Source: Patescibacteria group bacterium
GTDB lineage: Bacteria > Patescibacteriota > JAHJAL01
DNA: 64,000 nucleotides
Reading direction: 5' to 3'
Assembly: GCA_049322675.1 (NCBI GenBank)
Contig: JBMORM010000014.1
Location: forward strand, 15,896 to 79,895
Each line of letters opens with the position of its first letter. Position 1 is the first letter of the stretch. A model generated the notes under the pieces. It ran no database searches. It saw nothing but the letters and a program-made list of their open reading frames with translations, and was not told the DNA's origin. Of this stretch, positions 903 to 58,174 are shown piece after piece. The position numbers and the translations under genes were made by a program.

Positions 903-2378
903 TTATATCGTTGGTTTAGTCAAATCAGTGCTTTCTGATTCCTCACTAGTTAATATCGTCTGCTCTCCGTCCGTATGAGTTATGATGATTTTATAATTAT
1001 CTTTATCTACCCATTGATAATACAAACCGCATTTACTCGTTGGCGTATTTATTTCCCCACATTCGTCCAAACTCATTTTTTTATCCAGAATTCTCTCCTC
1101 TCCTGTCCACAAAGCATCAATTTTTTCCGTATAAGGATAAAAGCCTTTAACGGTATAAAATGTTTCCAAAGCGGTTTGTAAATTTTCTGCCGTCGTATCT
1201 AATTTGTTGTCACTTACGCTTTTTGTTTTTGGCAAACCTGTGTCAAATGTCGGGACGGGTGTCAAGTCCTCCTCTTCAAGATTGGTCCTCATCTCCTCTT
1301 CAATGCTGTTCAAATTAGTCAGAGGGGTTTTTAATTTGTCCAATGTAAACCATATTGCGTAGCCAGCAAACAATATTATCATCAAAATAATTAGCAAAAA
1401 TATCGCGGGGGCTCCATTATAGAGCCATTTTTGCGTTGTGGACAATACAGTTTCCGGTAACGATCCTTTTATTTCTTTAAGATTCTTATAAATCAGATAC
1501 TGATAATTGTAACTAAAGGTCAATACCAAGGTAGTAATTACAAACGTGACAAGTCTATCAATAATATTTAATACCAAAGACAAAATTGTATTATCACCGG
1601 AAAGAGCTGACAATATGCCAAATAATATACTCGTAACAAGGTTGACGATCGCAATCACAATAATAGAAACAATAACCAATAATACAATCCGCGCAAATAC
1701 ATCCCACCAGTATCCTTCAACATATTTCTTTGATCTGGCGACTGCTCGAGCTCCGGTAATATTTTCTGAGAATAAAATAAATTCTGCATAATTAAACCAG
1801 ACTGCAAAAATTATTCCAGGAATAACCAATAATATTGATCCACCGAAAATCGCTGCCCCGACTATTAACCCTATCCACCAGTATTGGAATAATTTACTCC
1901 ACCCATCTTTATAGCTACTAAAAAATCCCTTTGATTCAACGCAATTTACTTCTGCTATCATAGCCGCATAAGACCATATTTGAAAAAATGATAATATAAA
2001 CGACGCAGAAACCACGGTGACAAAAATCATAACAAATGAACCGCCTATCAAAGTGGAAGATGATAAAAAGGCTTGCATTTTTTCCAATGCTAGACTGGTG
2101 TCATTGTCGGTAATAACAGCAATCAAACCGGCAGCCCCAAACATAATCATCAAAAGAGTAACAACGATCATAACGTTGATTGCTGCCGGCACCAATTGGA
2201 TCAAAAATATCGTCAAAAATTTTTTCAGAGTTAGCTGCCAGGACTGACTAAACAAATCCCCGATCGAACGCAGACTTTTTGTTGGCATTGATCCGGGAGT
2301 TTGATTTGTTGGGATAGTCGCACTCGTATTAATATTATTTCCCCATCCATTCATCTGCCCCTCATTTGTTTGTTCCAT
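903..2378 (-). CDS. polytopic membrane protein with a hydrophilic C-terminal domain, function unknown
   Basis: 491-aa ORF; about 8 hydrophobic segments (e.g. IFLIQLVPAAINVMIVVTLLMIMFGAAGLIAV, LLVIVSIIVIAIVNLVTSILFGIL); ATG at 2378 with AAGAAGGGA upstream; no family motif recognised. Confidence 0.6.
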   Translation of the reverse strand: MEQTNEGQMNGWGNNINTSATIPTNQTPGSMPTKSLRSIGDLFSQSWQLTLKKFLTIFLIQLVPAAINVMIVVTLLMIMFGAAGLIAVITDNDTSLALEKMQAFLSSSTLIGGSFVMIFVTVVSASFILSFFQIWSYAAMIAEVNCVESKGFFSSYKDGWSKLFQYWWIGLIVGAAIFGGSILLVIPGIIFAVWFNYAEFILFSENITGARAVARSKKYVEGYWWDVFARIVLLVIVSIIVIAIVNLVTSILFGILSALSGDNTILSLVLNIIDRLVTFVITTLVLTFSYNYQYLIYKNLKEIKGSLPETVLSTTQKWLYNGAPAIFLLIILMIILFAGYAIWFTLDKLKTPLTNLNSIEEEMRTNLEEEDLTPVPTFDTGLPKTKSVSDNKLDTTAENLQTALETFYTVKGFYPYTEKIDALWTGEERILDKKMSLDECGEINTPTSKCGLYYQWVDKDNYKIIITHTDGEQTILTSEESESTDLTKPTI

Positions 2379-3515
2379 TTTTCCCTTCTTTTTTAGCCTA
2401 ATTAATATTTATTAAGATCAGTCTATCAATTTAAATTTTCAATTTCCAATTCTCAATTCTCTAATAAAGCAAATTAATTATCGAAAATTACGTCAGTATT
2501 TATTTGAAAATTGGGCATTGGGAATTTTTTGAAAATTGAAAATTGGAAATTGAAAATTGCCTCATGGGCATAAAAATAAGACCGCTGGCAAATGCGCCCT
2601 TCTTTATTAAAAAAATTTGGCGGCCTAGCGGTCTCATTGACCTCTTCGTAGCCTCCTTAACCCTTAACACAATGGTTGAAAGCTAGGGATAACTATATGA
2701 AAAGGCGTCTTTTTATCTTCCCTGCCGGTTAAATAAAAAGAAATTTTCAAACTGTTCTTCCGGCTTCCATGATACATCTCCAAAATCAAAACATAATTAT
2801 TATATTTGTCAAGGCAAGAAGATTCAAAACCCCACAAATATTTTTTGATTTCCAAGATGTACCATGGTTGCCCGCTCATCCGAAAATGAACCAGGTAGGC
2901 AGGTACCTTTCACCGAACAGTAAGAAAATCTAAAAACTAAGATTTTTGTTTTTGTTTTTTTGTCCTACCTCGTCGAAAGTCCATATTTATAAATAATTGG
3001 ACGACTTGGTAAAACATTTAGCCCCCTATATAAAAGATAGAAGACCTTCTCTTAGTTCTTAGATTCTCTTACCATTGCGGTGCTTTTTTTCGAACAGTTA
3101 TAAATTGTTAAAGTTTTATTTTTCTTTTGTTGTTTCTTTTGTCTGTTTTTTTGTTTTCATTACAATATAACAAACCATGTAAAATAAGTCAATAATATCT
3201 ATCAAACATAAAAAGAAAAACAACTTGAAAATTATCTCTGGGTGAGAAAAAACACAAAATAATATTCAAAAAAATAATCCAAGTTTTCCACAAGAACAAA
3301 ATATATACTTCCCCAAAAAAAATTTCGGTTTGACTTATTTTTTTATGACTGTTAAAATTAAAATAATCTTTTCAATCCAGGCGGCAAAATTATTAAAGAT
3401 TTAATCTTGCTCACCACATCAAAAATCAGTTCGTGACTATTTTTTAATTAAACCTCTTAAGATAATAAGAGTACATTATTATTTTTTTGTACTCGAAAAA
3501 TGGGGAGTTATTTTT
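2379..3515. other. 1.1-kb noncoding region upstream of rpoB with heptad repeat arrays and long imperfect hairpins
   Basis: No ORF of 60 aa or more on either strand; GAAAATT/GGAAATT arrays at 2429-2462 and 2531-2558; 10-bp stem GACCGCTGGC/GGCGGCCTAGCGGTC around 2590-2640; extended imperfect inverted repeat 2915-3090 ending GCGGTGCTTTTTTT; hairpin GAGTACA..TGTACTC plus GGGGAG immediately before the rpoB ATG. Confidence 0.5.
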
Positions 3516-6500
3516 ATGGCAAAAAAAATTAATCCTCCTGGACCATCCGATGTCCAACGAGTTTATTTTGGTAGTAGAAGACAATGGATCGATTTACCCG
3601 ATCTAAATACCATGCAAATAAACTCTTACAATTGGTTCTTTCAGGAAGGATTGCGTGAATTATTCGACGAAATCACTCCAATCGATGATTTCACCGGCAA
3701 AACCTTGTCTCTACAATTTGGCGATTACTATCTAGACCAACCAAAACATGATGAACACGCCTGTCGTGAAAGAAATTTTACCTACAAATCTGCCCTACGT
3801 TGTCAGGTTTCTCTTATCAATAAAGAAACCGGCGAGATTAAAGAGCAAGAAGTTTTCATGGGTGATTTTCCGCTCATGACTTCATCCGGTAGTTTTATTA
3901 TTAACGGTATCGAAAGAGTAGTCGTTTCACAGATAATCCGTTCACCAGGCGTTCTTTTTACATCTGAACGTTCGGCCGGTATCGAATATTTTGGCGCAAA
4001 AATTATTCCTGATCGCGGAGCTTGGTTGGAATTGGAAACCAACAATAAAAACATCATCTATGTCAAAATTGACCGCAAACGAAAAATACCCGTTACCACT
4101 CTTTTGCGTGCTTTTGGTCTTTCTTCGGATCAAGAGATAATCGATACCTTTAAAGATGTAAATAATAATCCCGATCGTAATTATATTAATGCTACTTTGA
4201 CCAAAGATCCCGCTGACAACACTCAAGAAGGTCTGTTGGAAGTGTATAAGAGAATCAGACCCGGAGATTTGGCTACGGCCGAAAATGCTCAGACACTGAT
4301 CGAAGATATGTTTTTCAATTTTCGCCGCTATGATTTTGGCAAAGTTGGACGCTACAAAATCAACAAACGCCTAGAATTGGATATTCCTCAGGACAAACAA
4401 CATCGCACTATCACTCTCAAAGATTTGGTGGCTGTAGTTAAAGAAGTTATTAATCTCAATAATATCGGCGGTCCTGCTGACGATATCGATAATCTCAAAA
4501 ACCGTCGTGTTCGTTCAGTCGGCGAATTGGCTCAAAAAGCCTTGCGAGTCGGTTTGTTGCGTATGGAAAGAATCGTAAAAGATCGTATGAGTGTTTCCGA
4601 CATCAATACAGTTACTCCTTCCGCCCTGATCAATGTTCGTCCACTTACCGCCGCTTTACAAGAATTTTTTGCCAGCTCTCAATTCTCTCATTTTATGGAT
4701 CAAACCAATCCCCTGGCTGAACTAGAAAACAAACGCCGTATTACCGCTATGGGTCCCGGTGGTCTATCCAGAGAAAGAGCCGGCTTTGAAGTACGCGACG
4801 TTCATCATTCGCACTATGGTCGCCTCTGTCCGATTGAAACTCCTGAAGGCTCCAATATTGGTCTCGTCAGTCATTTGGCATGTTTTGCTTCTATCAACGA
4901 ATATGGATTCATTGTTACTCCCTATCATCCAGTCATTAGAGAACTGGAAAATAAGGCCGATCTTATTTATGGTCAAATCACCCGTGGCGACATTGTCGAT
5001 CCCAAAAATGAAAAAGTAGTCGTGCCTGACAATACCAAAATCACCAAAGAACTGGCCGCAAAAATTTCCAAACTTGATTTATCCAAGATACCGATCAAAC
5101 CACAAGTAAAACAAGAAGTATTATACCTAGATGCCCAAGAAGAAGAAAACTTTGTTATTGCTCAAGCCGATATCTTGTTGGATGAAGAAAATCGTTTCGT
5201 TGATGACATAATTGCGGCTAGAGCCAAAGGTGAACCTGATTATGTTCCCCAAGAACAAATCGACTACATAAGCGTTTCTCCCAAACAAATTTTTTCTGTG
5301 GCTACTTCCCTAATTCCGTTTGTAGAAAATGATGAAGGTGTGCGCGCTTCAATGGGATCAAACATGTTGCGACAAGCTGTCAGCCTTGTTAAACCTCAAA
5401 CCCCGGTTGTCGGCACCGGTATCGAAGAAAAAGCCGCTTTGGATTCGGGTGAAATAGTTGTCGCCGAAGATGACGGAGAAGTAATTTCCGCGGCCGGAAA
5501 CGAATTGACTCTTCAGTACAAAAACAAACAACTCAAAACATACCCTCTTCGCAAATTTGTTAAATCAAACCAAGGCACCTGCATCAATCAACGAATTGTA
5601 GTTGAAAAAGACGAAAAAGTTAAAAAAGGTCAACTGTTGGTTGACGGCACCTCAACTGATCATGGTGAATTGGCTTTAGGACAAAATATTATGGTCGCAT
5701 TTATGCCCTGGGGCGGCTACAACTTCCAAGATGCAGTTATTATTTCCGAGCGACTTGTTCATGAAGATCGTTATTCTTCAATTCATATCGAAACCCATTT
5801 GATCGAAGTTCGGGAAACCAAACTTGGCCCCGAAGTTATTACACGCGATATTCCCAATGTTGGTGAAGAAGCTCTAAAAAATCTGGACGGAGACGGTATT
5901 ATTCGTTTAGGCGCCGAAGTAACTACTGGCGATATTCTCGTTGGTAAAATCACTCCCAAAGGTGAAAGCGAATTAACCGCCGAAGAAAAACTCTTGCGAG
6001 CTATCTTTGGTGAAAAAGCGCGCGACGTCAAAGACACTTCCTTGCGACTACCTCATGGTGAACGTGGAAAAATAGTTAATATCAAAGTTTTTACCAGAGA
6101 TAAAGGTGATGAACTGGCAACTGGAGTTATTAAAGCCATCGAAGTTAGCGTTGCTCAACTCCGTAAAATTTCCGTTGGTGACAAAATGGCCGGTCGTCAC
6201 GGTAACAAAGGTGTCATTTCCCGAGTACTTCCAGTCGAAGATATGCCGTATATGCCTGACGGTACTCCTGTTGATATTATTCTCAACCCCCTTGGTGTTA
6301 TTTCACGTATCAATTTGGGTCAGGTCTTAGAAACTCACCTCGGTTGGGCTGCCAAAACTCTAGGTTACAAAGTAGCCTGTCCTGTATTTGAAGGGGCATC
6401 ATGGGAAGAAATAAAAAAAGAATTAATCAAAGCCGAATTACCCGGTTCCGGCAAAATAACTCTGTATGATGGTCGTAGCGGTGAAGCATTTGATCAAGAT

Positions 6501-6958: not shown

Positions 6959-7022
6959 CGACCTTTTAACTTTTAAACTGAAGGTTATTAATATTTTAAT
7001 TATTAATTCTTAATTTATATAT

Positions 7023-10000
7023 ATGTCTGATAGCAAGACTATTAATCAAAACAAAGGTCAAAACAGTCAACCCAACTTTGACCGGATTAAAATCTCCATC
7101 GCCTCACCAGAAGACATCAAATATTGGTCTTATGGCGAAGTCTTGAAACCGGAAACCATAAACTATCGTACGCAAAAACCAGAAAAAGATGGTCTGTTTG
7201 CCGAAAATATTTTTGGTCCGACCAAAGACTGGGAATGCTACTGCGGTAAATACAAAAAAATTCGTTACAAAGGTATTGTGTGCGACAAATGCGGAGTGGA
7301 AGTAACCCGCTCGCTTGTTCGTCGTCAAAGATTAGGTCATATTTCTCTGGCAGTTCCTGTTGCTCATATCTGGTATCTTCGCGGATCCCCGTGTGTTACC
7401 GGCTTGTTATTAAATATTACCAGTCGCAATTTAGAAAGGGTAATTTATTTTGCCTCCTACATTGTTATTGAAGTAAACGAGGAAGTTCGCCAGGAAATAA
7501 TGGGTAAATTGACTGCCGAATTTGATCAGTACAAAAAGCAGCTCAAAAAAGAATTGGCCAAAAGCCTTGACGATTTGAATCAAGCCAAAGACCAAGCCCT
7601 TTCAACCGCCCCCAATGATCAGAAAAAAGATATCAATGAACACTACGAACGGGAAATCGCAAAAGCCAGCCAACAAAGCGCCCATAAGTTAGAAAATTTA
7701 AAAAATACTTTCAATAAGGCTCTCGATGAAGTCGGCAAACTTACTCCGTATCAAATCATCTCCGAAAAAAAATATCGTATGCTTTCCATGCGCTATGGCC
7801 AGATTATTCGTGCCGGTATTGGCGCCGAAGCGATTTTCGAACTTCTTTCCAAAATCGATATCAATGAACAAATCAAATTAATTCTTGAAGAATTAACAAC
7901 GGCATCATCTCAACGCCGTCGCAAATTACTAAAAAAATTACGCCTGCTCAAAAATCTCAACAAAGCCAATATTAGGCCTGAATGGATGATTCTCAAAGAA
8001 CTTCCGGTTATTCCGCCTGACCTTAGACCAATGGTGCAACTTGATGGTGGGCGTTTCGCTTCATCCGATCTCAATGATCTATATCGCCGTGTTATCAACC
8101 GCAACAATCGATTGAAAAAATTAATCGATCTCGGTGCTCCAGAAATTATTTGTCGCAACGAAAAAAGAATGCTTCAAGAAGCGGTTGATGTCTTGGTTGA
8201 CAATACTCCTCGCCGTGGCAAAAGTGCGGTTCTTACAAGCAATCGTCGCAAGTACAAATCTCTTTCCGATATGCTCAAAGGCAAACAAGGACGTTTCCGC
8301 CAAAATTTGCTTGGTAAACGCGTGGACTATTCTGGCCGTTCAGTTATCGTCGTTGGACCGGATCTAAATTTGAACCAATGCGGTTTGCCCAAAAAAATCG
8401 CTCTCGAATTGTACAAACCATATATTATTCATGGCCTTATCGATCGTGGTTACGCGCACAATATAAAAAATGCTGGCAAAATCATCGAACGCAAGGATCC
8501 TGAAATTTGGGATATTTTGGAAGAATCGGTCAACAACTCATATGTTTTGCTAAACCGCGCCCCCACTCTTCATCGTCTTGGTATTCAAGCTTTCAAACCG
8601 GTGTTAATCGAAGGAAAAGCCATTCAGATTCCACCTCTGGTCTGTCAGGCTTACAATGCTGATTTTGACGGTGATCAGATGGCAGTTCATCTTCCCTTAT
8701 CCAAAATGGCCCAAGAAGAATCAGCTGCTTTCATGAATGCCAGTAAAAACTTGTTGAAACCGGCCGACGGCGAACCAATAGTCGCCCCCGCCCAAGATAT
8801 GATTCTTGGTTGCTATTATTTAACCGTTGAAATACCGGGCCGTATTGGTGAAGGAAAATATTTTACCTCACTTGAAGAAGCCATCATGGCTTACAGTCAG
8901 AAATGCCTGGATTTGCACTCCCCTGTTCATATTCGACTGGGCGACAAGTTGATCAAGACCACAGTTGGTCGCGCAATTTTCAATTCTATTTTTCCGTCAG
9001 AAATGGAATACCACAATAAAACTTTTATTAAAGGCGATCTAGAAAATATAATTAAAAAAAGTTTTGAAGTTTGCGGATTGGAAAAGACATCAATCTTCGT
9101 TGATAAAATAATGCAAATCGGTTTTTATTATGCCACCAAATCTGGTATCACTTTCTCGGTTGACGACATCAATATTCCCCTGGAAAAAAACGAAGTGATC
9201 GAAAACACCGAAAACATCGTCAATGAATCTTTAAATCAATACTTCCAGGGTTTGATTACCAAGAAAGAACACAAACAAAAATTGATCGAATCTTGGTTGG
9301 ATTCCATCGGACAACTCAACAACATCATCAAAGATCACATGACTCCGTCCAATCCTTTGCATGCCTGCGTCTTATCCAAGGCTCGTGGTAATATTTCTCA
9401 ATTTGGTCAGATGGCCGGTCTAAAAGGTCTGGTTTCCAACCCCGCCGGTGAAATCATCGAACTACCTATCAAATCCAACTTCACCGAAGGTTTGTCCGAA
9501 TTGGAATATTTTATCTCTACTCACGGCTCCAGAAAAGGTAAAACCGACACCGCTTTAAAAACTGCCGACGCCGGTTATCTTACCCGTCGTTTAGTAGATG
9601 TTTCCCAAGATATGATCACTACCGCTGAAGATTGCGGTGCCACCGAAGGTATTTCCTACTCCCGTTCGGAAATTGACAAAGAGCAAGAGGAATTTACTAA
9701 AAAAATCATCGGTCGCTATCCGACAGTTGATATTCTTGATCCTGATACCAAAGAAATCATCGTTGATTCCAATACTTTGATCACTGACGTTACCGCCAAA
9801 CAAATAATTACCAACCCCAAAATTGCCAATGTTTCTGTTCGATCTACTCTTTACTGTCGCAATATCTGGGGAATATGTACCAAATGTTATGGTGCCGACT
9901 TGACTACCAATCAATCAATAAAGTTTGGTGAAGCTATCGGTATTATCGCGGCTCAATCAATCGGAGAACCAGGAACTCAACTTTCGATGCGTACTTATCA

Positions 10001-11015: not shown

Positions 11016-11816
11016 ATGGAAAAACCAAAAAACAGATCCCGCTTCAGAACAACACTCGGTACCCCGTATCATTTGATAAAAAAATATTTTTATTGGCATT
11101 TTTCCGGGACCAACTTTACTTCTCGGCAATCTGATTCAGTCTTTCCGGAATTAATATATTCTCACCAGACTCCCTTGTTGCGGCGGTTAAAAGAAGTAGA
11201 TATGCAATGGCAGCACAATAAAATTACAAATCTCAAATTGGCTATCAAGAAAATTAATCATTTGATCATTGAACCGGGGCAAACTTTTTCTTTTTGGCGT
11301 CAAATTGGTTGCCCTTCCGCTCGCCAAGGTTATCTTGAAGGCATGATTTTACAAGACGGGAAAATCAAACAAGCAATTGGCGGTGGTCTTTGTCAACTTT
11401 CCAATCTACTCTTTTGGATAACCGCCCATACTCCACTGACAATCATTGAACGTTGGCGTCATGATTATGATGTATTCCCCGATTGTCAGCGCAGCCAGCC
11501 TTTTGGTAGTGGAGCTACTTGTTGTTATCCCAATATTGATCTTCAAATCAAAAACAATACTTCTCAAATTTTCCAACTGATTCTTAATGTTGGCACCAAT
11601 GATCTTGTCGGCGAGTGGCGTTCAAATCAACCTGCTGTCAATCATTATCGGATCATAGAAAAAAACCATTTGATTATTAGTGAGTGGTGGGGTGGTTACA
11701 CCAGAAATAACCAGTTATATCGTCAAGTTATTGATCCCGTCACCGGCACGGTTTTTCGGGAGGAATTCTTGGTGGACAATCATGCCGTCATGATGTACAA
11801 CCCATTATTGAAATGA
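11016..11816 (+). CDS. VanW-like family protein
   Basis: GGGLCQLSNLLFWITAHTPLTIIERWRHDYDVFP...GSGATCCYPNIDLQIKNNT matches the VanW (PF04294-like) core; the ORF-track TTG start at 10989 lies inside the rpoC terminator, so ATG 11016 (MEKPKN) is preferred; TGA stop. Confidence 0.7.
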   Translation: MEKPKNRSRFRTTLGTPYHLIKKYFYWHFSGTNFTSRQSDSVFPELIYSHQTPLLRRLKEVDMQWQHNKITNLKLAIKKINHLIIEPGQTFSFWRQIGCPSARQGYLEGMILQDGKIKQAIGGGLCQLSNLLFWITAHTPLTIIERWRHDYDVFPDCQRSQPFGSGATCCYPNIDLQIKNNTSQIFQLILNVGTNDLVGEWRSNQPAVNHYRIIEKNHLIISEWWGGYTRNNQLYRQVIDPVTGTVFREEFLVDNHAVMMYNPLLK

Positions 11817-12074
11817 TATTTATAATCTTCTTAAGTTCGTTTATTGACCTTTGTTGACTTGACTTATTTATTTATGCTAAATTAAGATAGCAATAAATAG
11901 AGATCAAATTTTTCAATTCTCAACTACTACTCCACATATTTGTCTTTTGCTCAATTTAAAAAGTAATGGCGTAACACTACGTCACTAATTTATTGAATTT
12001 ATTATTTAGTTCCAAGTTTTTAATTCTCAATTATTCAATATTGAAAATTAAAAATTGAAAATTAAATTTTATAA

Positions 12075-12622: not shown

Positions 12623-13096
12623 ATGCCACGACGCAAAAGACCTTTCAAAAAAAACCGCCAAACCGACTCGAAATACAATAGCGTATTAGTCAACCGCATG
12701 ATCCAGATGATTATCTGGAAAGGAAAAAAAAGTGTAGCTCAGCGATTGGTTTATGGCGCGTTATCCGAATTAGAAAAAAAATCAAACAAGCCAGCCATGG
12801 AAGCACTCGAACAAGCGATCAAAAATGTTTCTCCAGTTTTGGAATTGAAAGCGCGCCGTATTGGTGGTTCCAATTATCAAGTCCCCGTCGAAGTCAAATC
12901 AGAAAGAGCCGTTACTCTCTCGCTACGCTGGTTAATTGCTGCCGCTCGCGAAAAATCCGGCAAATCTTTTGATATTTTGTTGGCCAACGAATTGTTGGAC
13001 GCTTTAAATACTACTGGTTCAGCAATCAAAAAACGCGAAGACACTCATCGTATGGCCGAAGCCAACAAGGCCTTTGCCTATTTAGCCAGATACTAG
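12623..13096 (+). CDS. rpsG: 30S ribosomal protein S7
   Basis: MPRRKRPFKKNRQTDSKYNSVLVNRMIQ... S7 family. Confidence 0.95.
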   Translation: MPRRKRPFKKNRQTDSKYNSVLVNRMIQMIIWKGKKSVAQRLVYGALSELEKKSNKPAMEALEQAIKNVSPVLELKARRIGGSNYQVPVEVKSERAVTLSLRWLIAAAREKSGKSFDILLANELLDALNTTGSAIKKREDTHRMAEANKAFAYLARY

Positions 13097-19872: not shown

Positions 19873-19910
19873 CAATTTACCTATATTTTTAGATATTTAA
19901 AATTTAACAC

Positions 19911-20231
19911 ATGTCTCGTTCACTAAAAAAAGGACCATTCTGCGAACCAAAACTTTTAAAAAGGATTAGAGCTCTCAAGCCGGGAGATAAGACAGTATTA
20001 AAAACTTGGTCGCGCGCCAGTGTAATCTATCCCGATTTTGTTGGCTTTACTGTTGCTGTTCACAATGGCAAGGATCATATTCCAGTATATGTTTCGGAAA
20101 ATATGGTCGGTCACAAATTTGGTGAATTTGCTCCTACCAGAAAATTTCGTGGACATGGTGGAAAAATGGCTAAAGAACAAGCCAAATCAGCCGCTCCTGC
20201 ATCAGCTCCGGCCGCTCCCGCCAAAAAATAA
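19911..20231 (+). CDS. rpsS: 30S ribosomal protein S19, with an Ala/Pro/Lys-rich C-terminal tail
   Basis: [36 protein letters not shown]; C-terminal tail [20 protein letters not shown]. Confidence 0.95.
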
Positions 20232-31396: not shown

Positions 31397-31499
31397 CCCT
31401 CACGGGACCGAACTGCTGCTGGCAATGACCAATTTTCAAACAAATTCAATTCTAGGATCATTCTTTTTTGTATTTGTTTGGAAATTGAGCCTTTTTTGG
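31397..31499 (-). repeat. dispersed intergenic element, copy 1 (short form), with conserved ends shared with 62839-63142
   Basis: 31397-31426 CCCTCACGGGACCGAACTGCTGCTGGCAAT is the exact reverse complement of 63113-63142; 31478-31499 TTGGAAATTGAGCCTTTTTTGG is the exact reverse complement of 62839-62860; flanked by heptad arrays at 31352-31392 and 31500-31560. Confidence 0.6.
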
Positions 31500-31564
31500 A
31501 AATTGAGAATTGGAAATTGGAAATTATCAATTCATTCTTAATTATTAATTGTTAATTAATTATT

Positions 31565-32146
31565 ATGTCGCATTTATTTTTAATAACCGGCGTTCCCGGT
31601 GTCGGCAAAACTTCCATCGCCAACGCCGTTGCCGCCAATTTCAATTTACCGTTAATCAATTTCGGTGACATTTTGTTCAAAAAAATCAAAGCCGCCAAAA
31701 TAGGTATCAAAGAAGTTGACGAAATCAGAGTCAAGTTACCTTTCAAACAGTACAAAAAATTCCAAGTCGCTACCGCCCGCGAGATTGCCAAAACCAAGGG
31801 CGACAAAATAATCACTTCTCATCTTTCCATTGATACTCCAACTGGATTCAAACCGGGCTTCCCGCAAAATGTTATCGATATTTTTTCTCCCAGTATTATT
31901 TTTTCTATTCAATCCCCGGCCGACGAAATCAGAAAAAGACGCATGTCCGACAAAGACACTCGTCATCGTGGACAAAAACTGGAAAAATGGATCGAATTTC
32001 ACCAATCCTTCAACCGCGCCCTCGCCGCCAACTACGCCTTCTACACCGGCAATTACGTCTATCCAGTCCAAAATCGTCAGGGAGAAATTGCCAACTGCAT
32101 CGAGGAAATCAACGAAGTTATTGGACAGATACTGAAACAAAAATAA
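31565..32146 (+). CDS. adkA: adenylate kinase, archaeal type (AdkA family)
   Basis: LITGVPGVGKTS P-loop; SHLSIDTPTGFKPGFP; RRMSDKDTRHRG; VQNRQGEI; these align to remembered Methanococcus/Methanocaldococcus AdkA blocks (VTGVPGVGTT, THSTxKTPKGYLPGLP, RRxxDETRxRD, QNRNG); no bacterial Adk LID or NMP-binding motifs. Confidence 0.75.
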   Translation: MSHLFLITGVPGVGKTSIANAVAANFNLPLINFGDILFKKIKAAKIGIKEVDEIRVKLPFKQYKKFQVATAREIAKTKGDKIITSHLSIDTPTGFKPGFPQNVIDIFSPSIIFSIQSPADEIRKRRMSDKDTRHRGQKLEKWIEFHQSFNRALAANYAFYTGNYVYPVQNRQGEIANCIEEINEVIGQILKQK

Positions 32147-32175
32147 GACAATTTCCAGTTTCCAATTTCCAGTTT

Positions 32176-32197
32176 CCAAAAAATGTCCAATTTCCAA
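32176..32197 (+). repeat. partial third copy of the left-end motif of the dispersed element (CCAAAAAATGTCCAATTTCCAA)
   Basis: Differs from CCAAAAAAGGCTCAATTTCCAA at three positions; embedded in the heptad arrays between adkA and map. Confidence 0.4.
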
Positions 32198-32308
32198 TTC
32201 TCAATGGATGCGATCCGTTTGGAAATTGTGTCTTGGAAATTCATTGGAAATTATACCGTTGTTTACAAAAATGAATATATTTTTTTGTTCCCAATTTACA
32301 TTATTCCA

Positions 32309-33591: not shown

Positions 33592-33600
33592 CTTTTTAAA

Positions 33601-33689
33601 TTTCCAATTTCCAATAATCAATTTCCAATAAATTTTCCATTGTCCCAACAAAATATCATTTGGAAATTGAAAATTGAAAATTGAAAATT
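33601..33689. repeat. inverted pair of heptad arrays (AATTTCC x3 ... GGAAATT/GAAAATT x4) flanking a 27-nt spacer between rpmJ and rpsM
   Basis: 33601-33634 AAATTTCCAATTTCCAATAATCAATTTCCAATAA; 33662-33689 GGAAATTGAAAATTGAAAATTGAAAATT. Confidence 0.65.
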
Positions 33690-33709
33690 TATATTTAATT
33701 TTTACGAAC

Positions 33710-34093: not shown

Positions 34094-34099
34094 TATAAA

Positions 34100-34198
34100 A
34101 TTTCCAATTTCCAGTTTTCAATTTCCAAATCTATAACCAAATTATCCGTATATCCCCTCAAAGTATGTTTGAAAATTGTGAATTGAAAATTGGAAATT
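34100..34198. repeat. inverted pair of heptad arrays flanking a 41-nt spacer between rpsM and rpsK
   Basis: 34100-34128 AATTTCCAATTTCCAGTTTTCAATTTCC; 34170-34198 GAAAATTGTGAATTGAAAATTGGAAATT. Confidence 0.65.
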
Positions 34199-57726: not shown

Positions 57727-57790
57727 AAGTTATCAAGTTATAAAGTGAGAACGTTTTAACGTATAAACGTATGAACGTTCATGCATTTAT
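57727..57790. repeat. left arm of an imperfect inverted repeat bracketing the four-helix-bundle gene
   Basis: AAGTTATCAAGTTATAAAGTG (57727-57747), then GAGAACGTTTTAACGTATAAACGTATGAACGTTCATGC; pairs with 58275-58359. Confidence 0.6.
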
Positions 57791-57802
57791 ACGTTTATAC
57801 TT

Positions 57803-58174
57803 TTATATATTCTTTCTTAAAACCTTAATAAGACATGCGATCATTGAAGAAATTTTCTCGCACTTATCTTTGATTATTACAAAATCATTAGTTTTAATAT
57901 ATAACAATTTGTTGGCAAGATATAATTGTGTTTTAAGCTCCGAGCATGAACCCTTCGATATGTACAAAAATCTTACAAACTCTTTCTTGGTCCCTCTTTC
58001 AAAACCTTCTGCAATATTACTTGGGATAGATACTGCTGCTCTTTGCATTTGTTGTATTAGTCCATAATCATTTCTAAATAAATACTTATTATTAGTTTGT
58101 TGATAAATCACTTCAACCAAAATCATACTTTCTTGCCATACTTTTATCTCTTCTACTTTTTTAAAAAAATTCAT
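57803..58174 (-). CDS. four-helix-bundle protein of the '23S rRNA intervening sequence protein' family (TIGR02436/PF05635-like)
   Basis: QMQRAAVSIPSNIAEGFERGTKKEFVRFLYISKGSCSELKTQLYLANKL matches the family signature A.SI.SNIAEG..R....E...FL.IA.GS..E; 123 aa. Confidence 0.8.
   Translation of the reverse strand: MNFFKKVEEIKVWQESMILVEVIYQQTNNKYLFRNDYGLIQQMQRAAVSIPSNIAEGFERGTKKEFVRFLYISKGSCSELKTQLYLANKLLYIKTNDFVIIKDKCEKISSMIACLIKVLRKNI

Follow-up and report, generated by a model that had tools for sequence, protein, structure and literature searches.

Introduction

What kind of sequence is a GC-rich 30-mer that stands, letter for letter, in two intergenic regions of one Patescibacteria contig, each time accompanied by an identical 22-mer, and each time separated from that 22-mer by different DNA? 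In the initial annotation the two words were taken for the conserved ends of a small mobile or templated element with variable cargo, or else for the 5' and 3' modules of an sRNA gene family. The question touches on a broader expectation, because Patescibacteria (CPR) genomes are small, streamlined, and usually thought to be repeat-poor. The present study describes the anatomy of both loci in the analysed window, i.e., a stretch of 64,000 nucleotides, their counterparts in other Patescibacteria, and the explanations that may account for them.

Results

Exact words and homology blocks shared by two loci

A search of the window placed the 30-mer CCCTCACGGGACCGAACTGCTGCTGGCAAT at 31397-31426 (+) and 63113-63142 (-), and the 22-mer TTGGAAATTGAGCCTTTTTTGG at 31478-31499 (+) and 62839-62860 (-), all as exact matches and in agreement with the positions annotated initially. 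No third window match to the 30-mer was obtained with up to 3 mismatches allowed, and the 22-mer has one additional copy, with 3 mismatches, at 32176-32197 (-). Neither word was matched in shuffled sequence (for the 30-mer, 0 matches in 100 dinucleotide-preserving shuffles), and the GC content of the 30-mer is 63% vs 38% for the window, which bears out the annotation of a GC-rich, non-chance match in AT-rich DNA.

Gap-tolerant alignment extended the shared words to block A (31390-31446 vs 63149-63094, ~95% identity) and block B (31478-31525 vs 62860-62813, 92% identity), with an interior of 31 nt in copy 1 (31447-31477) and 233 nt in copy 2 (62861-63093). No convincing mutual alignment of the two interiors was obtained, nor any alignment of the flanks beyond the AT-rich arms. 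Since these flanks are unrelated, the loci do not represent a segmental duplication, and an assembly artefact is excluded by the independent assemblies (NCBI, JGI, and other metagenome data) in which the 30-mer has its same surroundings; both possibilities had been raised as potential objections to the initial annotation. Chance similarity, artefact, or duplication, for which the inverted arrangement of the two loci is the sole argument, can therefore be regarded as refuted by the shuffles, the unrelated flanks, and the independent assemblies, and retains a negligible probability.

The orientation of such an element is a matter of convention, and polarity was here taken from the reading direction of the in-frame copies described below. 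With polarity set in this way, copy 1 is co-directed with its flanking genes and copy 2 is antisense to both neighbours, which reverses the annotated orientation (copy 1 antisense, copy 2 sense). As a separate observation, the window copies constitute inverted repeats 31.7 kb apart, with blocks of 56 nt and 48 nt at an identity of at least 92%, and homologous recombination between them could invert the intervening 31.7-kb segment.

The features of both loci, and of a third hairpin that holds the diverged 22-mer, are listed below.

31358-31391 (+): 5' arm of the outer hairpin of copy 1, heptamer array AATTTCC AATTTCC AATTCTC AATTTCC AATAAA
31390-31446 (+): core unit of copy 1 (block A), consisting of AATTTTT, the 30-mer, and then GACCAATTTTCAAACAAATT
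31397-31426 (+): 30-mer core, exact match, containing the small hairpin CCC-TCAC-GGG
31429-31489 (+): inner AT-rich hairpin of copy 1, from the minimum-free-energy structure
31478-31525 (+): block B of copy 1, 22-mer (31478-31499) and 3' heptamer arm (31492-31525)
32150-32245 (+): third heptamer hairpin, in the kinase gene-map spacer, with the 3-mismatch 22-mer at 32176-32197
62813-62860 (-): block B of copy 2, 22-mer (62839-62860) and heptamer arm
62868-63045 (no strand assigned): imperfect palindrome of ~180 nt, GTGTCATCCTGGAGC...GCTCCAGAATGACA, in copy 2 only, folding on both strands (z about -9.5 to -9.9)
63061-63090 (+): GC hairpins TCCGCCAGAGGCGGA and TCAGCCTTGGGCTGA, followed by GGAAATTTTTT on the + strand, in copy 2 only, from the hairpin scan
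63094-63149 (-): core unit of copy 2 (block A), with the exact 30-mer at 63113-63142

Anatomy of the two copies

Copy 1 is bordered by a Cys-rich ORF of 579 aa (29619-31358, +) on one side and by a gene for an AAA_17 kinase-like protein (31565-32146, +) on the other, and its core unit is recovered by nhmmer with the family profile at 62 bits (E 5e-18). The outer hairpin is closed by two 34-nt arms (31358-31391 and 31492-31525) that are 97% complementary, and the fold of 31350-31530 reaches -70.6 kcal/mol (z -10.8). Within it, the 3' heptamers of the unit pair with the first half of the 22-mer to form the inner hairpin, which is followed by CC and a T6 run. A 31-nt stretch of the right arm (31495-31525) recurs exactly in another Patescibacteria contig, L001.

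Copy 2 is found in the spacer from the rfbD-like gene (61992-62813, +) to the rfbC-like gene (about 63184-63729, +). Its core unit scores 66 bits (E 2e-19), and the folding energy of the locus is -135 to -144 kcal/mol whichever strand is taken. Between its blocks, the additional modules are another stretch of heptamers, a pair of GC hairpins (63061-63075 and 63076-63090) with a T-run, and the palindrome of ~180 nt, which may also be written GTGTCATCC...GGATGACA. The GC hairpins with their T-run look terminator-like and are downstream of rfbD; the terminator-like site was called at 63076-63090, in a scan of which the count was not above that of shuffles. The palindrome gave a weak Rfam match to WsnRNA46, a Wolbachia hairpin family (25 bits vs a gathering score of 65.3). 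No second copy of the copy 2 interior was present among the sequences compared, and its interpretation as a nested mobile element was consequently left without support. Palindromes that start with (T)GTCATCC and end with GGATGAC(A) were seen both at 62868-63045 and in contig L023 at about 19900-19990, and may represent a further palindromic repeat type.

Small GC hairpins (GGGCGAGG-N4-CCTCGCCC; GGGGCAG-N7/8-CTGCCC) similar to those of copy 2 accompany the core in contigs L009, L014, and L016, which argues that these loci are mosaics of short modules rather than one element with variable cargo. A possible third core in the window, at 2560-2594 (CCTCATGGG...GCTGGCAAATG), was dropped because the family profile gave it no support.

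Heptamer arrays and the status of the 22-mer

The arms are built of tandem 7-nt repeats, AATTTCC and its complement GGAAATT. A two-heptamer probe matched the window 38 times vs 3.8 expected, and 19 arrays of at least three AATTNNN units are present, all of them outside long ORFs. Inverted pairs of arrays make hairpins in at least seven window spacers, including those between rpmJ, rpsM, and rpsK. The catalogue comprises inverted arrays or hairpins at 2434-2558, 12004-12067, 32150-32245, 33597-33691, and 34099-34198, single arrays at 6995, 22410, 23224, 23836, 25538, 26204, 33105, 34670, and 49816, and, in contig L023, arrays at 9842-10000, 11715-11800, and 12791-12886. Tandem AT-rich 7-nt repeats are thus encountered in nearly every spacer, also inside the ribosomal-protein operon.

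The 22-mer belongs for the most part to such a heptamer arm, joined to GAGCC and a T6 run. By nhmmer, the hairpin at 32150-32245 contains no core unit, and since a degenerate 22-mer is found in its arm without the 30-mer, the 22-mer is a generic rather than an element-specific 'end'. Of the degenerate third end proposed at 32176-32197, the 22-mer with 3 mismatches is therefore real, but no core adjoins it. Moreover, none of the 24 loci compared contains the 22-mer, and the core unit occurs without it in L001, L008, L009, and L011. On one point the initial annotation is favoured: the exact right arm of copy 1 in L001 shows that a core is found more than once with a heptamer arm at a variable distance.

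Spacers of relatives likewise contain 7-nt-periodic inverted arrays, but of other heptamers; in L023 the heptamer differs per locus (AATTTTA, AATTACC/AATTCGT, and AAAGTCA). The kinase-map spacer of L019, a contig of which the kinase is 94% identical to that of the window, has nothing in common with the corresponding window spacer. These differences indicate that the hairpin architecture persists among relatives, whereas its sequence is replaced quickly.

Taken together, the core that also stands alone without the 22-mer, and the 22-mer that is mostly generic arm, imply that the two shared words are not the termini of one element. What had been annotated as conserved termini with variable cargo holds as far as the differing interiors are concerned (31 vs 233 nt), and 'conserved ends, different interiors' would reflect the mosaic composition of the intergenic hairpins.

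The core unit in other genomes

The unit of ~65 nt can be written as (AATTTYC)n-AATTTTT-CCCTCACGGGACCGAACTGCTGCTGGC-AATTTYCAAACAWTAT, with the 30-mer as its GC-rich core; in order, it comprises one to three AATTTYC heptamers, AATTTTT, CCCTCACGGG-ACCGAACTGCTGCTGGC, and AATTTYCAAACAWTAT. A 21-mer from the core was searched in collections of species-representative genomes and metagenomes, and 13 loci were returned. Nine of these belong to high-GC organisms, lie in coding DNA, and are otherwise dissimilar, and were for that reason considered chance matches. The other four are AT-rich Patescibacteria contigs (L001, L008, L009, and L011) that carry the whole 30-mer with the same flanks. The unit that these contigs share runs (A)AATTTYCAATTTCCAATTTTT, 30-mer, TTYCAAACAWTAT, and is near-identical over ~65 nt in L008, L009, and L011. 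Searching the 30-mer in related Patescibacteria genomes, as had been suggested with the initial annotation, thereby led to four contigs from independent assemblies.

Two of the exact copies beyond the window are intergenic and two are in frame inside genes. In L001, which belongs to the Patescibacteria MAG GCA_036794765.1, the unit is placed after the stop of a GH1-like gene (412-aa ORF), with the 31-nt heptamer arm ~25 nt downstream, and in L011 it is positioned between a 172-aa ORF and a tRNA-like sequence. The L008 copy is inside rsmE (Pfam Methyltrans_RNA, 7.6e-36), where it is read as ...RANFQFPIFPSRDRTAAGNFQTY..., and the L009 copy is inside a 523-aa ORF for a Wzy_C-like membrane protein. 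Besides this type A copy, the latter ORF contains a second, diverged copy, designated type B (CCCCTCACGGGGATCAGCTGCTGCCGAC, read as NNFQFFPSRGSAAADNFQ), and a profile search detected a type C copy (CCCCTCGCGGGGATTAGCTGGTGCCGA, E 4.5e-10) in frame in the TrmA-like methyltransferase gene of L014/L015. Including the two in the window and at least nine in other contigs, about 11 copies were seen. No match to the core was found in viral contigs, and no genes common to the window and loci L001-L018 were found.

AATTTYCAA is present on both sides of the core, with matching Y in six of nine copies; because this repeat is identical everywhere, it may be part of the unit instead of a target duplication. 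The core unit does not end in inverted repeats. In ten of the 11 copies the orientation is that of the host gene or of the gene next to it.

Insertion, inheritance, and decay of in-frame copies

The five closest RsmE homologues (P0001-P0005, 53-100% identical) have extra residues at one site, and P0006 and all more distant homologues are without the insert. Three positions of the 30-mer are changed in the rsmE copy of L014; the L016 copy has diverged strongly and is similar to type B, and both are followed by a GC hairpin, GGGGCAGATCATGATYTGCCC. L016 and L001 come from a single MAG, and because the intergenic copy of L001 is perfect, this MAG combines old and young copies. The TrmA-like orthologue in L016 is without the core that is present in L014, but this 'empty' site is itself 7-nt periodic and so not a clean pre-insertion site. 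The comparison of loci with and without the element, which had been put forward at the outset, is thus informative for the distant RsmE orthologues and for the absence of the core from the L016 TrmA-like gene, but not for the state of the latter site before insertion. The unit is copied into unrelated places and, after insertion, is inherited with the host gene and diverges.

In-frame copies add about 16-20 residues to a loop of the host protein. In an AlphaFold model of the L008 RsmE (mean pLDDT 86.6) the insert is in coil, and its 10-residue block has a pLDDT of 71 vs at least 90 in both flanks, a prediction that would fit a tolerated surface loop. Stop codons are absent from the canonical unit in each of the three sense frames, and one or two antisense frames are open as well. 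Three independent coding copies are read in the same frame (PSRD/PSRG), and the TrmA-like copy is in another (PLAGISWCR). In the coding copies of L008 and L009 the 30-mer is identical at every position, third-codon positions included, and this identity, combined with the differing TrmA frame, argues for an element at the DNA level and not for a selected peptide. A protein search with the translated unit gave no candidate in which three 5-residue words were shared.

RNA structure, promoter, and terminator scans

The consensus structure of seven diverse copies consists of a single 4-bp hairpin, (U/C)CCC-UCRC-GGG(A/G), of which the closing pair covaries (U-A in four sequences, C-G in three). This small hairpin would fit a recognition hairpin rather than a structured RNA. 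At gathering thresholds Rfam gave no match in the whole window, so that the proposed comparison of the element with Rfam yielded no family. Scans by E-value of both loci and of 2370-3520 returned only weak hairpin-type matches (miRNA precursors, WsnRNA46, and CRISPR-DR37), the last at 15-16 bits vs a gathering score of 40. A CRISPR array is not apparent, as there is no regular spacing and the two copies are inverted and 31.7 kb apart. No tRNA or tmRNA was found by scanning, and promoter and terminator scans gave counts not above those of shuffles and no convincing promoter. Strand asymmetry of the folding energy was evaluated as a sign of the transcribed strand, and was discarded since it was inconsistent between the loci.

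Neighbourhood of copy 1

Homologues of the kinase gene beside copy 1 are present in other Patescibacteria contigs at identities of 94%, 80%, 65%, and 61%; in the three of these contigs that were compared upstream of the gene (L020, L022, and L023), the kinase gene comes directly after secY. Between secY and the kinase gene, the window has three additional features (region 28107-31560), namely an IS110-family gene (28553-29542), the Cys-rich ORF, and copy 1. The IS110-family gene (Pfam DEDD_Tnp_IS110 and Transposase_20) is preceded by ~450 nt of non-coding DNA, in which coding of a bridge RNA is conceivable. IS110-family elements target REP-type hairpins. No sequence link of the gene, which is 2 kb from copy 1, or of its flanks to the unit was found.

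REP-like GC hairpins flank the IS110-family gene at 28258-28276 and 29558-29577, and near-identical hairpins are in frame inside ORFs in L009 (about 5548 and 5703, -) and L014 (4907, +); they look like a second dispersed repeat family. The 579-aa Cys-rich ORF gave no Pfam match and contains a 98-nt internal direct repeat (30224-30321 vs 30683-30780, 76% identical), which indicates a duplicated CxxC-rich module.

Discussion

The favoured explanation, with a probability of about 60%, is that the core unit represents a new family of short interspersed, coding-tolerant repeats, RPE- or REP/BIME-like, dispersed in a clade of Patescibacteria. Of the small mobile or templated element that was originally suggested, this retains a dispersed repeat in unrelated contexts elsewhere, but not the architecture of two termini with cargo. 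The unit would be a non-autonomous, selfish or nearly neutral DNA module, and could be spread by a putative trans-acting enzyme that recognises the small hairpin and the core; alternatively, its spread might be due to recombination, or to gene conversion, between the heptamer arrays on either side of the core. In large AT-rich hairpins with heptamer arms, intergenic copies, both window copies included, occupy the 5' side of the loop; these hairpins would be mosaics of heptamer arms, core unit, small GC hairpins, and long palindrome, comparable to the BIMEs of E. coli, in which REP units are joined to further motifs. Against a copied element count the absence of terminal inverted repeats, the number of copies seen (only about 11), and the polarity bias of 10 in 11, which a purely neutral element outside coding regions does not need.

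Perfect conservation over 30-65 nt between genomes in which RsmE is ~70% identical could reflect purifying selection on a functional site, and the main rival holds that the core is a cis-acting signal under such selection, e.g., a binding or processing site or a punctuation of transcript ends. The identity of the 30-mer in at least four organisms (100%), the shared polarity with the adjacent or host gene in 10 of 11 copies, the hairpin pairing that is kept through the change from U-A to C-G, and the intergenic copies directly after stop codons, in hairpins with T-runs, are all in line with such a signal. It does not account for the unit in unrelated coding sequences, at non-homologous positions, and absent from distant orthologues; moreover, the copies inside genes decay (L014 and L016), window copy 2 is antisense to both neighbours, and most intergenic heptamer hairpins of the window are without a core, which together make a cis-acting signal an unlikely reading. 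Classical MITEs could be considered if copy 1 (31358-31525, ~170 bp) were the full-length element, its 34-bp arms the terminal inverted repeats, and the others truncated or nested, in which case a transposase encoded elsewhere would mobilise the element. The 97% complementarity of the 34-nt arms, the exact right arm beside the core in L001, the nested appearance of copy 2, and the end of contig L019 directly at the repeat would agree with this. The arms are generic, however, in that heptamer arrays flank many core-less loops and each locus of L023 has a heptamer of its own, a pattern not expected of copies of one MITE; the left arm is not present in the coding copies or in L001, and neither matching transposase ends (the window IS110-family gene was inspected) nor a clear variable target-site duplication was found, which renders this scenario improbable.

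An sRNA gene family in which 5' and 3' modules are conserved around a variable middle can claim the strong folds of both loci (z about -10) and the weak WsnRNA46 match in the interior of copy 2. These folds are produced by generic palindromic arms and are equal on both strands, no Rfam family reaches threshold, the copies share no conserved structure beyond the 4-bp hairpin, several of them fall within ORFs, and no convincing promoter is present; the sRNA alternative of the initial annotation has thus become very improbable. Even less can be expected of a mobile module of which the encoded peptide (NFQFPIFPSRDRTAAGNFQ) is under selection: it would explain the common frame of three independent coding copies, but not the intergenic copies outside ORFs, the other frame of the core in the TrmA-like copy, the identical nucleotides, synonymous sites included, of coding copies in unrelated genes, or the modelling of the insert as a lower-confidence coil. 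A more far-reaching and rather doubtful proposition is that unit, heptamers, and GC hairpins are together the footprint of an undescribed sequence-specific copying system of Patescibacteria that writes stop-free modules into heptamer-like targets, intergenic and intragenic alike, with a hairpin-recognising Y1/RAYT-like or an IS110/bridge-RNA-type recombinase as candidate. If it were true, ultra-small genomes would possess an active, lineage-wide source of protein-loop and intergenic variation.

Comparison with known systems

For the favoured reading, i.e., short interspersed repeats that tolerate coding positions, the closest functional analogue is the Rickettsia palindromic element (RPE). RPEs are dispersed between the genes of a reduced genome and, with unusual frequency, in frame in unrelated housekeeping genes, with a peptide that is compatible with the fold (PMC10969869). 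Similarly, the unit is found between genes and in frame in unrelated genes (rsmE, TrmA-like, and Wzy-like), and is absent from orthologues. Unlike RPEs, which are palindromic over ~100-150 bp, its coding copies measure ~50-65 nt and have a 4-bp hairpin; besides, the hosts are Patescibacteria and not Rickettsia, and a sequence relationship to RPEs is not apparent.

REP/BIME sequences of enterobacteria and pseudomonads are comparable in combining short GC-rich hairpins with other motifs, in AT-richer spacers, into mosaics that differ per locus; a mosaic of core hairpin, GC hairpins, and arms was seen in copy 2, L009, L014, and L016, several of these copies being intragenic. REPs are by definition extragenic and are linked to RAYT transposases, whereas the unit also occurs inside genes, and no RAYT was encountered among the window ORFs that were scanned. 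The repeats of STRR sequences are heptamers in intergenic DNA. Such short tandemly repeated repetitive sequences exist in cyanobacteria (PMC5088731). The arms of both window copies are likewise tandem intergenic 7-nt repeats, but STRRs have not been described to form inverted pairs that enclose a conserved core, and phylum and sequences differ. With MITEs (Correia, ERIC, and BOX) the unit has in common that these are small, non-autonomous, multi-copy, and hairpin-forming, sometimes with in-frame ORF fusions; it measures ~65 nt, has no coding capacity of its own, and is present in multiple copies, but it is without specific terminal inverted repeats. A full-text search of the literature returned no description of such repeats in Patescibacteria or CPR.

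A repeat that is identical in different members of the group and invades housekeeping genes in frame would be a second, independent case of 'selfish DNA inside protein-coding genes' after Rickettsia. In practical terms, repeats of this kind break metagenome contigs, create spurious ORFs (NFQF.../WKLEI... peptides), and inflate the apparent divergence of protein loops, and they are possible markers of strains or lineages. The 7-nt-periodic hairpins in nearly every spacer of conserved operons deserve a study of their own.

Additional observations in the window

Two further regions of the window are recorded here. Upstream of rpoB, 1.1 kb without a long ORF (2379-3515) contains a strong hairpin at 2762-2872 and gave no Rfam match. 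At 57727-57831, an imperfect palindrome of ~100 nt is rich in ACGT-containing words (AACGTTT and ACGTATAAACGTAT).
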